From assembly GCF_003790525.1 (NCBI RefSeq), contig NZ_CP033635.1: a stretch of 64,000 nt of DNA. One strand, 5' to 3'. The notes below the pieces were generated by a model. The model saw only the letters and a program-made list of their open reading frames with translations. It searched no databases and had not been told where the DNA came from. The translations under genes were made by a program, and so were the position numbers. This stretch comes from Escherichia coli. Its GTDB lineage: Bacteria > Pseudomonadota > Gammaproteobacteria > Enterobacterales > Enterobacteriaceae. Of this stretch, positions 23,949-36,660 are shown one piece after another (position 1 is the stretch's first letter; every line of letters starts with the position of its first letter).

Positions 23949-25078
23949 CAGAGCTGGAAGTTACTCAAATCGTCGGTGTCCACTTCCGCGTCAATCTGCC
24001 CGACCAGATAAGAACTCACTTCCACTTCCTGCGGAGCAACCTGTACGTTATCAGACACCAACCAAGTGTTGATCCACGGGATCGGGTTGGAGCGCGTCTG
24101 GAACGGCAGATCCAAACCGACTGCCTGCATACGGATATTGGTGATGTATTCAACGTACTGGCAGAGGATGTCTTTATTCAGACCAATCATCGAACCATCA
24201 CGGAACAGATAATCCGCCCAGTCTTTCTCTTGCTGTGCCGCCTGGACAAACAGGTCATAGCACTCCTGCTTACATTCTTCGGCAATTTCCGCCATCTCCG
24301 GATCATCCGCGCCGCTGCGCAGCAGATTCAGCATATGCTGGGTGCCGGTCAGGTGCAGGGCTTCGTCGCGGGCAATCAGGCGAATAATTTTGGCGTTACC
24401 TTCCATCAGTTCGCGTTCTGCAAAGGCAAAGGAACAAGCAAAGCTGACGTAGAAGCGGATCGCTTCCAGCGCGTTAACGCTCATCAGGCAGAGATACAGT
24501 TTTTTCTTCAGCTCGCGCAGGCTAACGGTTACGGTTTTACCGTTAACGGTGTGGGTACCTTCGCCCAGCAGATGCCAGTAGCTGGTCATTTCGATCAGTT
24601 CATCGTAATAGCTGGAGATCCCTTCCGCACGTTTCTGGATCTGCTCGTTGGTGACGATATCGTCAAAGACAACTGACGGATCGTTAACGATATTACGGAT
24701 GATATGGGTATAGGAGCGGGAATGAATCGTTTCTGAGAACGCCCAGGTTTCTACCCAGGTTTCCAGTTCCGGGATCGAGATCAGCGGCAGCAGTGCCACG
24801 TTCGGGCTGCGACCCTGAATGGAGTCCAGCAGCGTCTGATATTTCAGGTTGCTGATAAAGATGTGTTTTTCGTGTTCAGGTAGTGCCTGGTAATCGATAC
24901 GGTCACGAGAAACGTCAACTTCTTCCGGACGCCAGAAGAAAGAGAGCTGCTTTTCGATCAGCTTTTCGAAGATGTCATATTTTTGCTGATCGTAGCGAGC
25001 CACGTTAACCGGCTGACCAAAGAACATCGGTTCTTTCAGCTGATCATTTTTCGTCTGTGAAAAGGTGGTATATGCCAT
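23948..25078 (-). CDS. nrdB: NrdB, class Ia ribonucleotide reductase beta subunit
   Basis: ORF 23948-25129 with start trimmed to [17 protein letters not shown], about 376 aa. Confidence 0.95.
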
Positions 25079-27671: not shown

Positions 27672-28204
27672 CTCAGGAAGGAAAAAGTGGCTTTCGCGCA
27701 CCTTAGGTCAGACAAGGTGTCCGGGAAAGTCAATGGGAAGAGAAAAATTTGTTAAAAATAACTGTTCGGCGATTTCTTGAACGGAAGAATAGGTTAGATA
27801 AATTGATATAGATGGTTTATTAATCTTTTTGCTAATGATTGCAAAAATTGATCTAAGCACGAGTCATCACATAATCTGATGTATCAGTTATGGTCAATAT
27901 ATAAGCGAATGTAAGCGATTGTTGATGTCGAAATGGTTGTTTTCTCTTCGGTTGTTGTTAAATGCGAAGCCATTTTGTTAATTTACCTTATATTATAAGA
28001 AAATTATTCATTACTTTAATTCAGTTTAAACATAACTGATATCCCTTAAGGTGATTAACTTGAATTATGACGCACTGATATTATTCATGAAATAATAACA
28101 AAATAGCCATTGCACCGGGTTGAACAATTTACAAAAGAAAAATAACCCATATCGTATAATGCGATTAAATATGCCGTCTTATAGAAAATGATGGTCAGAT
28201 TAAT

Positions 28205-32830: not shown

Positions 32831-32907
32831 TGTTACATAAGAGTCTATAAAGGTTGTCGGGCAGTATAGCAGGTGAAAAGTGCCAGTGTTATAAACTCAT
32901 TCACATT

Positions 32908-33606
32908 TTACTGTGTAGATAACGAGAGAATTTTTCGTGCGCGCTCGGTAAATCCACTACTTACGTGATGAGTAATAAAATTACAAACACCTTCAACGTT
33001 ATTATTTTTTAGCATATCTAAAATAGTCGCATGGCCACGATTTGAATTGGTGATATATTCCGTAGTGAAATCCAGTCGATAACGGATAGCAAGTAAACGT
33101 GCGGATATCAATTGGTGTGCCTGAGAGATGTATTTATTATCAGCGTATTTAACAAACACATAATGAAAATCATGATCCAGTTTAAGATAAGCCTGAGTAT
33201 CGCGCTCGGCATTAATTTTTGCTGATTTTGATAGTATACTATTTAGTTCAATGATGACATTGTTTGCATTCTTTTCCATTGCTTCACTAATTGCACCCTG
33301 CTCCAGAATTACTCGCATTTTTATGAGGTCATTAATATCTTTATCTGTTACGGAAAAAACGAATGTTCCGCTGCGTGGAATGATATTGATCAGATTTTCA
33401 TTGTGACTAAGTAAAATAAAAGCTTCACGAATAGGTGTTTTACTTACCGCCAGAATATTCGAAAGTTCATTTTCACTTATCGGTTGCCCAAGACTGAGAT
33501 CGCCATGAATTATCATATCCCTGATTTTTTCTTTGATGACCTGTGTTACGGATTTTGGTATCTCAATTGATATGTGACTTAAGTCACGTTTCGCTTTATC
33601 TCTCAT
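32908..33606 (-). CDS. GntR-family (FadR/FCD subfamily) transcriptional regulator; accessory-island gene
   Basis: 232-aa ORF with N-terminal GntR-type winged HTH (…LSENELSNILAVSKTPIREAF…) and C-terminal all-helical FCD-like domain; codons are AT-rich. Confidence 0.8.
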   Translation of the reverse strand: MRDKAKRDLSHISIEIPKSVTQVIKEKIRDMIIHGDLSLGQPISENELSNILAVSKTPIREAFILLSHNENLINIIPRSGTFVFSVTDKDINDLIKMRVILEQGAISEAMEKNANNVIIELNSILSKSAKINAERDTQAYLKLDHDFHYVFVKYADNKYISQAHQLISARLLAIRYRLDFTTEYITNSNRGHATILDMLKNNNVEGVCNFITHHVSSGFTERARKILSLSTQ

Positions 33607-33670
33607 TCCTTTGCCCCTTATTAAGCTGCTGGTCCATTATATGTAATCATTTTATCAATGAAGGTATCTA

Positions 33671-33753
33671 ATATATCAGATATGACAAAAATGATATATC
33701 TTATTGTTGTAGCTTAGTGTTTCAATCAATGATCAAGCTGATATATCAGATAT
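33671..33753. promoter_or_regulatory. Two copies of a 13-bp operator-like motif in the divergent regulator / transporter promoter region
   Basis: atatatcagatat occurs at 33671-33683 and again at 33741-33753; the core atatc-a-gatat is an inverted repeat. Confidence 0.45.
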
Positions 33754-33843
33754 AACACATCACCTTTTGAACTGGATTATTTTTTACGTAATATCCACTT
33801 CGGGCAGTACTCTTATTCATTGAACCACAAAAGGTGAAACAAA

Positions 33844-35172
33844 ATGAGCAGTCCTCAGAAAGATTTGTATGAAGCCATTTCTATTGTGAAAAGGAAGATT
33901 ATTCCGTTAGCATTTATTCTGTATTTTTTTAACTATATGGATCGTGTTAACATCGGATTTGCCGCTTTACGCATGAATGAATCCCTTGGTATTACACCAG
34001 AGGATTTTGCTAATATATCTTCAATATTTTTTGTGTCCTATTTGATTTTTCAAATTCCGAGCAGTATTGGATTGCAAAAGTTAGGTGCAAGAAAATGGAT
34101 TAGCGCCATTATTGTTGGTTGGGGAACAGTAACAACGTTAATTTTCTTTGCCAAAGACACCCAGCATATATTGCTCGCTCGGGTCTTTTTGGGAATATTT
34201 GAAGCGGGGTTTTTCCCTGGCATGGTTTACTACCTGGCATGTTGGTTCCCGGCGCGTGAACGTGGAAAAGTGAATAGCTTTTTTATGTTATCAATCGCAG
34301 TTGCATCTGTGCTGGCGGCACCAATGTCTGGTTGGATTATTGAACATATGAATACCGGTAACTATGAAGGATGGCGCTGGCTTTTTGCTATTGAAGGCAT
34401 TCCTACGGTGTTATTGGGGGCGCTGACCTTTTATTTACTGCCAGATCGTCCGGAAAAAGCCCGCTGGCTTACACCATCGCAAGTCACCGCATTGGTCGAT
34501 AAACTTAATTCTGATAACGAAAAAGCCGCAGCATTAAATAAAAATACAAATGCATCTTTTCTGTCAATCATTAAAAATCCAGTATTACTACAACTCTCAT
34601 TTGCTTATATGTTTATTCAGGCAGCGGCGTTGGCGGCAAATTACTGGTTACCGGGGTTGGTTAAAGGATTTTCATCGGATTTCACAGATACCGATGTCGG
34701 TTTGATTATGAGTATTCCGTTTATTTTCGCGATGTTCAGTATGCCATTATGGGGATGGCATTCCGATAAAAAGAATGAAAGGAAATGGCATGCCGCACTA
34801 CCGATGTTGGTTGCAGGTTGCGGTTTTTTAATGATCGCACTTGTACCTTCGATGACGCTGCGCATGATGGGATTAACATTATACGGTGTAGGCATTCTCA
34901 GTTATTACGGTCCGTACTGGGCTTTACCCTCAGCTTTACTTTCACCATCAGGCCTGGCAATCAGTATTGCGTTTATTAACTCTTGTTCAAGTTTGGGTGG
35001 TTTTCTGATCAATAAATCACTTGGCTATGTTTCTACACATTATGGAGCCACGGGGATATTTATTGTTGAGGCGATTCTTTGCTTTATCGCCGTAGCTATT
35101 TTGTTATCAATGAAAATTGATAATAAAAAAGATAACGCCCAGAAAGACAATGTTATTTCACATGCTAAATAA
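33844..35172 (+). CDS. MFS transporter of the anion:cation symporter (ACS) family, sugar-acid type (DgoT/RhmT/GudP-like)
   Basis: 442-aa ORF with motifs shared with the RhmT in this window (…DRVNIGFAA…, [11 protein letters not shown]…, WFPxRER). Confidence 0.8.
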   Translation: MSSPQKDLYEAISIVKRKIIPLAFILYFFNYMDRVNIGFAALRMNESLGITPEDFANISSIFFVSYLIFQIPSSIGLQKLGARKWISAIIVGWGTVTTLIFFAKDTQHILLARVFLGIFEAGFFPGMVYYLACWFPARERGKVNSFFMLSIAVASVLAAPMSGWIIEHMNTGNYEGWRWLFAIEGIPTVLLGALTFYLLPDRPEKARWLTPSQVTALVDKLNSDNEKAAALNKNTNASFLSIIKNPVLLQLSFAYMFIQAAALAANYWLPGLVKGFSSDFTDTDVGLIMSIPFIFAMFSMPLWGWHSDKKNERKWHAALPMLVAGCGFLMIALVPSMTLRMMGLTLYGVGILSYYGPYWALPSALLSPSGLAISIAFINSCSSLGGFLINKSLGYVSTHYGATGIFIVEAILCFIAVAILLSMKIDNKKDNAQKDNVISHAK

Positions 35173-35184
35173 ATGAGGTTATTT

Positions 35185-36387
35185 ATGAAGATTACATCTG
35201 TAGAAATTTTTGACTGCGAACTCAAAAAAAGAGATCAAACTATGGCCTCTTATAATCCAGTACTTATTCGGGTTAATACCGATGCTGGAATAAGTGGTGT
35301 TGGCGAAGTAGGATTAGCCTATGGTGCAGGTGCAAAATCTGGTGTTGGTATTATCAGAGATTTAGCCCCTCTCATCATTGGTGAAGATCCGTTGAACATT
35401 GAGAAGATTTGGGAATTCCTCTTCAGGAAAACATTTTGGGGAATGGGCGGTGGTAATGTTTTTTACGCAGGTATGAGCGCTATTGATATTGCCTTATGGG
35501 ATATTAAAGGTAAATATTTAAACGTGCCGGTTTATCAACTACTGGGGGGAAAGACTAACGATAAATTGAGAACTTACGCCAGTCAGTTACAATTTGGTTG
35601 GGGCGAAAAAAGGCAAATATTAGTAACGCCTGAAGAGTATGCAGAGGCAGCGCGTGCCGCTATTGCAGAAGGTTATAATGCGATAAAAGTTGATCCGCTT
35701 GAAATCGATCTGCATGGCGGCGATTGTGTCTTTCAGAACAAAAATAGAAATTACTCTGGCTTATTACTGGCCGAACAATTAAAAATGGGCGAGGCAAGAA
35801 TTGCCGCTATGCGTGAAGCAATGGGCGACGATGCTGATATTATTGTAGAGATTCATTCTCTTCTAGGAACAAATTCAGCGATCCAGTTTGCCAAAGCAAT
35901 AGAGAAATATCGTATTTTTCTCTATGAGGAGCCAATTCATCCATTAAATTCGGATAATATGCAGAAAGTTGCCCGTTCAACATCGATTCCGATAGCAACA
36001 GGTGAGCGTTCTTATACTCGCTGGGGATATCGTGATTTACTGGAAAAACAATCAATTGCGGTAGCTCAACCTGATTTGTGTCTTTGTGGTGGCATTACAG
36101 AGGGAAAGAAAATTTGTGATTATGCCAATATATATGACACAACCGTTCAGGTACATGTTTGTGGCGGGCCTGTTTCAACAGTAGCGGCGCTGCATATGGA
36201 AACTGCAATACCTAACTTTATTATTCATGAACATCATACCAATGCGATGAAAGCATGTATTCGGGAACTTTGTACTTACGATTATCAACCCGAGAATGGC
36301 TATTATGTCGCGCCAGAGTTGCCTGGGCTTGGTCAGGAATTAAACGATGAAATCGTACAACAATATCTTGCCTATGTGATCAAATAA
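35185..36387 (+). CDS. Enolase-superfamily sugar-acid dehydratase, GalD / mandelate-racemase subgroup (D-galactonate-dehydratase-like)
   Basis: ORF 35173-36387. Start preferred at ATG 35185 (MKITSVEIFD…) with a GAGG Shine-Dalgarno at 35175-35178. Has the KxK motif (WDIKGK), the metal-ligand region and the QPDLxxxGGITE motif typical of DgoD-like dehydratases. Confidence 0.8.
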   Translation: MKITSVEIFDCELKKRDQTMASYNPVLIRVNTDAGISGVGEVGLAYGAGAKSGVGIIRDLAPLIIGEDPLNIEKIWEFLFRKTFWGMGGGNVFYAGMSAIDIALWDIKGKYLNVPVYQLLGGKTNDKLRTYASQLQFGWGEKRQILVTPEEYAEAARAAIAEGYNAIKVDPLEIDLHGGDCVFQNKNRNYSGLLLAEQLKMGEARIAAMREAMGDDADIIVEIHSLLGTNSAIQFAKAIEKYRIFLYEEPIHPLNSDNMQKVARSTSIPIATGERSYTRWGYRDLLEKQSIAVAQPDLCLCGGITEGKKICDYANIYDTTVQVHVCGGPVSTVAALHMETAIPNFIIHEHHTNAMKACIRELCTYDYQPENGYYVAPELPGLGQELNDEIVQQYLAYVIK

Positions 36388-36403
36388 CGGCGATTTATAT
36401 ACT

Positions 36404-36660
36404 CTAAATAATTCGAGTTGCAGGAAGGCGACAAGCGAGTGACAAATTCGTCAGGAACGAATTTGCCCAGCCGCAGGCTGGCCTTCGGTGAGAGACATGG
36501 ATGTCTCTCATTAATCCCCAGGAGCTTACATAAGTAAGTGACTGGGGTGAGCGACAAATCCGCATGGAGCGGATTTGAACGCTGCTTGCAGCGGCCCCGT
36601 AAGGGGTGAGGTCCATGGATGGGCCGAATAACCCGCAGACGCAGCACATGCAACTTGAAG
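36404..36660. repeat. ERIC (IRU) repeat, long variant, upstream of gyrA
   Basis: Contains the ERIC core ccccaggagcttacataagtaagtgactggggtgagcg (exact ERIC2 primer sequence at 36532-36553) flanked by imperfect inverted-repeat arms. Confidence 0.75.

Follow-up and report, generated by a model that had tools for sequence, protein, structure and literature searches.

According to the survey by Suvorova, Korostelev and Gelfand (2015, PMC4494728), operators of the GntR family follow the consensus NyGTNxACNy, which takes the form TKGT-N2-3-ACMA in the FadR subfamily, and the preferred bases track residues of the HTH domain: arginine at position 28 (Arg35 of FadR) goes with G/C, proline at position 40 avoids G/C, and asparagine prefers A. 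The same survey treats the BioR operator, TTATMKATAA, as a FadR-subfamily exception that was excluded from the consensus analysis for having AT in place of GT. It also describes double sites as common in divergons that contain the regulator gene (100 FadR-subfamily cases), together with a class of such double-site divergons in which the distance between the sites is constant (PMC4494728). FadR-subfamily regulators of sugar-acid metabolism are typically repressors; DgoR, which represses D-galactonate catabolism in E. coli, recognises two inverted repeats at its promoter and has the substrate as its effector (PMC11705089). In S. meliloti, HypR is described as the repressor of hydroxyproline catabolism, a regulator for which taxon-specific changes of the motif are reported (PMC5343134).

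Against this background we examined a divergent spacer within the window, that is, the whole 64-kb stretch of Escherichia coli DNA analysed here, in which a first-pass annotation had pointed to a duplicated 13-mer with an inverted-repeat core, ATATC-A-GATAT, as a candidate operator of a dimeric GntR/FadR-type repressor acting both on its own gene and on a transporter-dehydratase operon. The coordinates of the genes, boxes and candidate promoters are collected in Table 1. The regulator combines a winged-HTH domain (PF00392, residues 22-83, E=1.5e-13) with an FCD domain (PF07729, residues 93-216, E=1.5e-20), and its scores against the named NCBIfam regulators fall far under every cut-off. It aligns over its full length with orthologues from Salmonella (88% identical) and from a third enterobacterial locus, L005 (72% identical). 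Residues D144, H148, H192 and H214 are kept across 11 relatives; in FCD domains, residues of this type are metal ligands. The MFS gene is presumed to be the first gene of an operon under the control of the boxes, and the dehydratase gene starts at the base directly after the end of its stop codon. The dehydratase itself lies near the galactonate and gluconate dehydratases in NCBIfam, yet under their cut-offs, and its Salmonella orthologue has been crystallised twice (2gl5 and 4e6m, both labelled 'putative dehydratase').

Table 1. Coordinates, in window numbering, of the features in and around the spacer. A centred dot marks the symmetry axis of a box.
Feature	Coordinates	Strand	Remark
GntR-family regulator, 232 aa	32908..33606	-	presumed binder of the boxes
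Box 1, regulator-proximal candidate operator, TATCTAATA·TATCAGATA(T)	33665..33683		dyad 33673/74
Regulator promoter candidate, extended -10-like TGATATATT inside box 1	33670..33678	-	predicted from sequence
Third, partial box, TGATATATC	33692..33700		probably non-functional
Box 2, transporter-proximal candidate operator, aagCTGATA·TATCAGatat	33735..33753		dyad 33743/44
Alternative transporter promoter, ATAACA-17-GATTAT	33752-33757 and 33775-33780	+	box 2 against -35, at about -43
Transporter promoter candidate, TTGAAC-16-TAATAT	33767..33794	+	box 2 centre near -57
MFS transporter, 442 aa, D-galactonate/4-hydroxyphenylacetate (anion:cation symporter) type	33844..35172	+
Enolase-superfamily acid-sugar dehydratase, 404 aa	35173..36387	+

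The three-gene cassette lies between ubiG and gyrA, with a GC content of 39% in surroundings of 52-57%, and is carried by 140 of the 5,426 complete E. coli genomes, in all cases on the chromosome. In Salmonella the cassette STM2273-2275 occupies the same ubiG-gyrA position, and its GC content is 39-41% across both species. Over window positions 32831-36450, nucleotide identity to the Salmonella locus L001 is 79-82%, and that of the flanking ubiG is 80%. Since the cassette has thus diverged between the two species to the same degree as ubiG, the comparison suggests an old resident that was lost from about 97% of E. coli rather than a recent transfer. In one carrier, E. coli TH9F11 (NZ_CP054191.1), an IS5 element splits the dehydratase gene, which is consequently annotated twice, on either side of the IS5 transposase. 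An element at about 36390-36445, 3' of the dehydratase gene, has thousands of matches in nearly every E. coli genome, at a median of four places per genome, and behaves as a REP-type repeat.

As the first-pass annotation had it, 237 bp separate the start codon of the regulator gene (ATG at 33606, - strand) from that of the MFS gene (ATG at 33844). One Salmonella gene model of 294 aa (WP_000944714.1; positions 3985-4869 of L001, and likewise in L002-L004) would make the spacer coding and read through both boxes. We rejected this model because its 63-codon extension contains in-frame stops, six in E. coli and four in L005. A ribosome-binding site, GGAGGAG, precedes the short start, and the gene annotated in LT2/SL1344 is 696 nt long. 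The 294-aa model is also probably the cause of the 'frameshifted' label that PGAP gives to several E. coli alleles of the regulator. Comparison of the spacer with the Rfam covariance models gave a single match, to a snoRNA, which at 21.5 bits (E=0.85) stays below the gathering score of 70 and is attributable to chance. Within codons 6-11 of the regulator gene lies a CRP-like sequence, TGTGACTTAAGTCACG (33573-33588), which agrees with TGTGA-N6-TCACA in 9 of the 10 defined bases and persists in Salmonella (TGTGACTAAAGTCACG); L005 has a perfect match (TGTGACTAAAGTCACA), and in all three loci the sequence is flagged as terminator-like. CRP-type boxes are not unusual in the window (4 against 1.95 expected), and coding constraint confounds the conservation of this site.

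Both copies of the 13-mer, ATATATCAGATAT, are present on the + strand at 33671-33683 and 33741-33753, 70 bp apart, and no further exact copy occurs anywhere in the window, which speaks to the concern that the motif might be scattered through AT-rich DNA by composition. The similarity of the two copies extends over 20 nt (CTAATATATCAGATATGACA and CTGATATATCAGATATAACA, 18/20 identical). When the spacer (237 bp, 31% GC) was shuffled with its dinucleotide composition preserved, an exact direct repeat of at least 13 nt arose in 5 of 5,000 shuffles. A refined 12-mer, CTRATATATYAG, has two exact and three one-mismatch matches in the window, where 0.35 are expected, and none of 100 shuffles reached five matches. 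The repeat in the GntR-MFS spacer is therefore real and not a product of chance. One of the one-mismatch matches is a palindrome, ATCTGATGTATCAG, at 27874-27887 inside the 695-bp nrdA-yfaL spacer; the other two, at 24836 and 54993, fall within coding sequence. A second short repeat, ATCAATGA, occurs at 33654-33661 and 33725-33732, 13-14 nt to the left of each box, so that the direct repeat including this element and the boxes really measures about 33 nt, with a 1-nt indel. This left-hand element is found in E. coli only, being absent from Salmonella and L005, and an inverted copy of it (TTCATTGA, 33816-33823) lies within a conserved block further along the spacer.

As to the anatomy of the two sites, the sequence ATATC-A-GATAT is indeed an inverted repeat, and to this extent the first-pass annotation was correct, but it does not mark the best-supported axis of symmetry. 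Taken over 11 sites, positions pair in 69 of 99 cases about the axis of CTrATA·TATyAG and in 56 of 99 cases about that of ATATC-A-GATAT, which runs through the A of CAG. We accordingly rejected the latter as the main dyad in favour of an axis 4.5 bp further left; an axis in the middle of the block was also discarded for its poor pairing. In this left-hand register each 13-mer makes up the right two-thirds of a 16-19-bp palindrome, with the consensus (TA)TCTrATA·TATyAGA(TA). Box 1 has a 10-bp core, TAATATATCA, at 33669-33678; in each of its arms 8 of 9 positions pair, and 67 bp lie between the centre of the box and the regulator ATG. In box 2 the palindrome is perfect over 12 bp (33738-33749) around the core TGATATATCA (33739-33748), and the centre of the box is 100 bp from the MFS ATG. 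The left-hand axis yields perfect 16-bp palindromes in box 1 of L005 (ATCTAATATATTAGAT) and in Enterobacter, and it is the only register kept in the Aminobacter sites described below, where TGATATATCA is perfect and the arms of the ATATC-A-GATAT register are imperfect. That several registers look palindromic follows from the (AT)n-rich nature of the sequence. The TCT/AGA arms are conserved as strongly as the ATATAT core, and conservation is asymmetric, with three further bases (TAT) on the right side of the box in the enteric and Gilliamella sites, a feature for which a simple model of one dimer on a palindrome does not account. The partial box at 33692 was rejected as a third site because it is not conserved, reading TAATGTATC in other E. 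coli alleles and TTTACATAC in Salmonella. Judged by eye, the box fits neither an IHF nor an NrdR site.

Phylogenetic footprinting of orthologous spacers revealed conservation of the boxes against a diverged background. Both are unchanged in four E. coli alleles, a set that reaches down to the most divergent one encountered, at 96.9% identity. In Salmonella each box (TCTAATATATCAGATAT and GCTGATATATCAGATAT) is identical to that of E. coli at 17/17 positions. Across the E. coli and Salmonella spacers, the box positions are thus identical at 34/34 and the remaining positions at 137/203 (67%; Fisher p=5e-6). L005 lies in another chromosomal context, with genes for a LysR regulator, an SDR, an acetyltransferase, a HEPN protein and a trehalase as neighbours. 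Here the boxes read ATCTAATATATTAGATAT (box 1) and TCTGACATATTAGACAT (box 2), are again spaced by exactly 70 bp, and match E. coli at 29/34 positions, as compared with 48% elsewhere in the spacer (Fisher p=3e-5). The operator reading passes this footprint test, because orthologous spacers keep the boxes and the 13-mer, within the window, is confined to this one spacer. Another block, CTTATTCATTGAA (33812-33824), which contains the palindrome TTCAnTGAA and lies between the candidate -10 hexamer and the ribosome-binding site of the transporter gene, is nearly invariant across E. coli, Salmonella and L005.

Both the orthologous loci and more distant ones were reached through homologues of the dehydratase; a scan of species-representative genomes with a profile of the regulator gave 39 pattern matches, none of which was confirmed by tblastn. 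The distant dehydratase homologues are likewise paired with an MFS transporter and an FCD-GntR regulator, and several of these cassettes carry the same box. In Gilliamella apis (regulator 43% identical), two boxes, ATATCTAATATATCAGATATC and AATAATATATCAGATTT, lie 85 bp apart in the divergent spacer. Three boxes (CTGATATATGAT...CGATATATCATATATCAG) stand upstream of the transporter gene in Budvicia (regulator 40% identical), a perfect ATCTGATATATCAGAT is found in an Enterobacter sp. (39%), and the metagenomic contig L135 (43%) contributes ATCATATATCAGATATGAT. Where the regulator gene is not divergent, as in Budvicia, L135 and Enterobacter, boxes are found upstream of the transporter gene only. 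Spacers of 237-238 bp go with a box distance of 70 bp and a spacer of 265 bp with 85 bp, a comparison of too few independent points. The Morganella-type cassettes, whose regulators are 33% identical, have another box, sTGATATTTCAC, in three copies, and their regulators have the recognition helix STAPVHQA, as against SKTPIREA in the E. coli protein. The proteobacterial regulators that share the box, Aminobacter aside, keep SKTPIR[E/D]A, a helix also kept by the regulator of the L012 cassette (41% identical), in which no such box was detected.

How, then, do these sites compare with those described for the FadR subfamily? The features expected of a member are present, in that a gene for a GntR winged-HTH protein with an FCD domain is adjacent, a 12-20-bp palindrome lies upstream, and this palindrome is conserved upstream of orthologues. 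The A/T-rich palindrome and the 2-nt spacer geometry are shared as well. The family and subfamily consensus sequences, NyGTNxACNy and TKGT-N2-3-ACMA, are nevertheless not matched, since all enteric and Gilliamella sites have TRAT-AT-ATYA, with the hallmark G/C replaced by A/T. The proposal of a GntR/FadR-type operator has held up as far as it concerns conserved palindromes beside an FCD-GntR gene, one near each divergent gene; its core was mis-centred. In a BLASTP alignment with FadR, Arg35 corresponds to Asn46 (position 28), Arg45 to Lys56, Thr46 to Thr57 and Thr47 to Pro58 (position 40). Asn46 and Pro58 agree with an A/T-for-G/C core and lend it weak support, weak because position 28 varies among the regulators that share the box (N, E, S, D, G, K and R), with Arg at locus L109 and Lys at locus L080 although both are associated with the box.

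BioR provides a precedent within the FadR subfamily for a palindrome in which AT takes the place of the usual GT; its site differs in the flanking bases, in the spacer and in serving biotin genes of Alphaproteobacteria, and the regulators are related at the level of the subfamily alone. The likeness to DgoR and the dgo genes is one of organisation: an FCD/FadR regulator of an acid-sugar transporter and an enolase-superfamily dehydratase, with two inverted repeats that are presumed to bind one dimer each. The DgoR repeats, however, are canonical GT/AC sequences (IR1, TTGTAGTACAA), closely spaced and overlapping a single promoter, and the operon begins with dgoR. The present cassette lacks a kinase and an aldolase, its boxes have the core TGATATATCA, and a distance of 70 bp separates them within a spacer between divergent genes. 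No site of the GATATATC type was found in those site tables of PMC4494728 that are available as text. Searches with the box strings in the literature and the supplement of Suvorova and colleagues returned a PCR primer and unrelated matches only. The regulator, the box and the regulon are absent from the literature and datasets searched. A palindromic operator pair in a GntR/FadR divergon is a well-known kind of arrangement, and the all-A/T core makes this one slightly unusual.

We also searched about 100,000 species genomes for the pair ATATATYAGAT-N45-75-ATATATYAGAT, which yielded at least 120 loci. The matches listed come mostly from AT-rich genomes (Firmicutes and MAGs) and longer repeat families, so that the box pair alone is not specific. 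Among the 120 box-pair matches listed, however, at least seven loci encode an FCD-GntR homologue, namely those of a Bacillus sp., Lacrimispora, a Lachnospiraceae MAG, an Oscillospiraceae MAG and three Aminobacter species. For six of these seven loci among the matches listed, no more than about 230 bp separate the pair from the FCD-GntR gene. At the Oscillospiraceae locus, L080, a co-directional ORF precedes the GntR ORF, and the pair stands upstream of that preceding ORF, at a distance of 656 bp from the GntR ORF. The left flank of the boxes, which the search pattern left unconstrained, agrees with the mirror sequence ATCTR at 4.2 of 5 positions in the four Firmicutes loci, as compared with a mean of 2.0 of 5 in the 264 other boxes among the matches listed. 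The neighbouring genes differ from locus to locus and encode a 2-oxoacid:ferredoxin oxidoreductase with an amino-acid dehydrogenase, a Zn-dependent oxidoreductase, a branched-chain amino-acid binding protein, or a 4-hydroxyproline cluster. The box seems to follow the regulator family and not one pathway.

The hydroxyproline cluster (epimerase, D-amino-acid dehydrogenase and DapA-like enzyme) is that of the three Aminobacter loci (L020, L022 and L028), where the FCD-GntR gene is divergent and the spacer holds two cATCTGATATATCA boxes 56 bp apart. TTGACA/TTGTCA occupies a central position, with the ATATAT core of a box at 17 bp on either side, so that each box overlaps the -10 hexamer of one of the two divergent promoters. 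Given the GC content of these genomes, 63-65%, chance is a very unlikely source of an all-A/T box. In having a hydroxyproline cluster with a divergent FCD-GntR gene and paired boxes, these loci resemble the HypR system, and their regulator is probably the Rhizobiales form of HypR. The comparison has its limits, in that the Aminobacter regulator is distant (about 75-79 bits against the profile) and serves another pathway, and the gammaproteobacterial HypR sites read ATTGTATACAAT. CTrATATATyAG could conceivably represent a broad, undescribed class of operator, used by distant FCD-GntRs of Gamma- and Alphaproteobacteria, Bacilli and Clostridia, in which acid-sugar dehydratase, hydroxyproline, 2-oxoacid oxidoreductase and amino-acid transport pathways would share one all-A/T core without GT/AC. 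In such a class the operator would also be promoter sequence, as the core itself is an extended -10 element of the TGnTATAT type. We put this forward tentatively, as less likely than not.

In the E. coli spacer, the positions of the promoters are ambiguous, because scans for the sigma-70 consensus yield differing candidates in E. coli, Salmonella and L005. For the transporter gene, the hexamers and spacing of the candidate TTGnnn-16-TAAyAT are kept in Salmonella (TTGAAT/TAACAT) and L005 (TTGTCT/TAACAT), and the alternative is predicted in Salmonella as ATGACA-17-TATTGT. For the regulator gene, the candidate embedded in box 1 has its analogy in the overlap of box and -10 hexamer in Aminobacter; further candidates are TTGAAA-16-TAAGAT (33725 to 33698), upstream of box 1, and TATAAT (33641 to 33636), downstream of it. 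The Salmonella atlas of transcription start sites lists no start in the spacer and one very weak internal start in STM2275.

Taking these observations together, we consider it probable that the boxes are operators of the adjacent FCD-GntR regulator, each bound by one dimer with one winged-helix domain per half-site. Box 1 would most likely mediate autorepression of the regulator gene, given its position 67 bp from the regulator start and the TGnTATATT extended -10-like element embedded in it. Box 2 would most likely control the transporter-dehydratase operon, being centred 100 bp from the transporter start and just upstream of, or abutting, a conserved candidate promoter. The imported organic acid, or its 2-keto-3-deoxy product, might then bind the metal-containing FCD domain and release the regulator from the DNA.

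The sign of regulation and the independence of the two sites are the points at which this proposal can be challenged most readily. The same boxes and the same binder could form one cooperative unit, in which dimers 70 bp apart jointly shut both promoters through looping or tetramerisation. We think this unlikely, although E. coli, Salmonella and L005 all keep a distance of exactly 70 bp across intervening DNA that has fallen to about 50% identity, and although the constant-distance class of double-site divergons offers a precedent (PMC4494728). A distance of 70 bp corresponds to about 6.7 helical turns, and the other loci share no helical phase, with spacings of 85 bp in Gilliamella, 77-78 bp in Bacillus and Lachnospiraceae and 56 bp in Aminobacter (the Firmicutes and Aminobacter values being biased by the search pattern). 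Furthermore, cassettes with a non-divergent regulator have boxes only by the transporter gene, the distribution predicted for boxes that each act on the promoter closest to them, and FadR-type proteins are generally dimers. Less probable again is that the regulator activates the transporter promoter, or has a dual role like that of FadR at fabA. The idea arises because box 2 does not cover a -10 element or a start but precedes a weak -35 hexamer or abuts it, a position that would suit an activator too: with TTGAAC-16-TAATAT as the promoter, the centre of the box would precede the predicted start by about 57 bp, and with ATAACA-17-GATTAT by about 43 bp, both candidate promoters match just 8 of 12 consensus positions, and box 2 contains no usable + strand -10 element. 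These promoter assignments are themselves candidates drawn from sequence, and the layout in Aminobacter, where boxes overlap -10 hexamers, is that of a repressor. Repression is likewise the described mode of S. meliloti HypR (PMC5343134) and the typical one of FadR-subfamily sugar-acid regulators (PMC11705089).

Two further readings dispense with the regulator altogether. Low-GC DNA in GC-richer surroundings is a typical target of H-NS, and the cassette, at 39% GC within 52-57%, answers to this description; the box core, moreover, resembles an extended -10 element (TGnTATATT). It nevertheless seems very improbable that the boxes are simply promoter elements, or sites at which an H-NS-like nucleoid protein silences an AT-rich cassette, since the box also stands by FCD-GntR genes in Firmicutes and in Aminobacter genomes of 63-65% GC, and the palindromic TCT/AGA arms, needless for a -10 element, are conserved like the ATATAT core. 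Compositional chance can scarcely be credited. A spacer of 31% GC that is rich in (AT)n does offer many overlapping symmetries, and box pairs turn up in many AT-rich genomes among the matches listed, but the shuffling result (5 of 5,000), the restriction to two copies in 64 kb and the conservation across genera against a diverged background all speak against it.

Although this is otherwise routine bacterial gene regulation, the boxes supply a clear example of a predicted FadR-subfamily site that breaks with the GT/AC pattern, and their presumed regulator is one in which Asn at position 28 and Pro at position 40 shift as predicted. Such an example would be useful to motif-prediction methods, as positions 28 and 40 are specificity residues that can be aligned with confidence. 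The boxes are also a concrete candidate operator for a regulator that awaits characterisation, known in Salmonella as STM2275 and present in E. coli as its orthologue. A reporter based on them, or a deletion of the regulator gene, could be used to screen acid sugars for the inducer, and in this way may lead to the function of a dehydratase for which two crystal structures are available.
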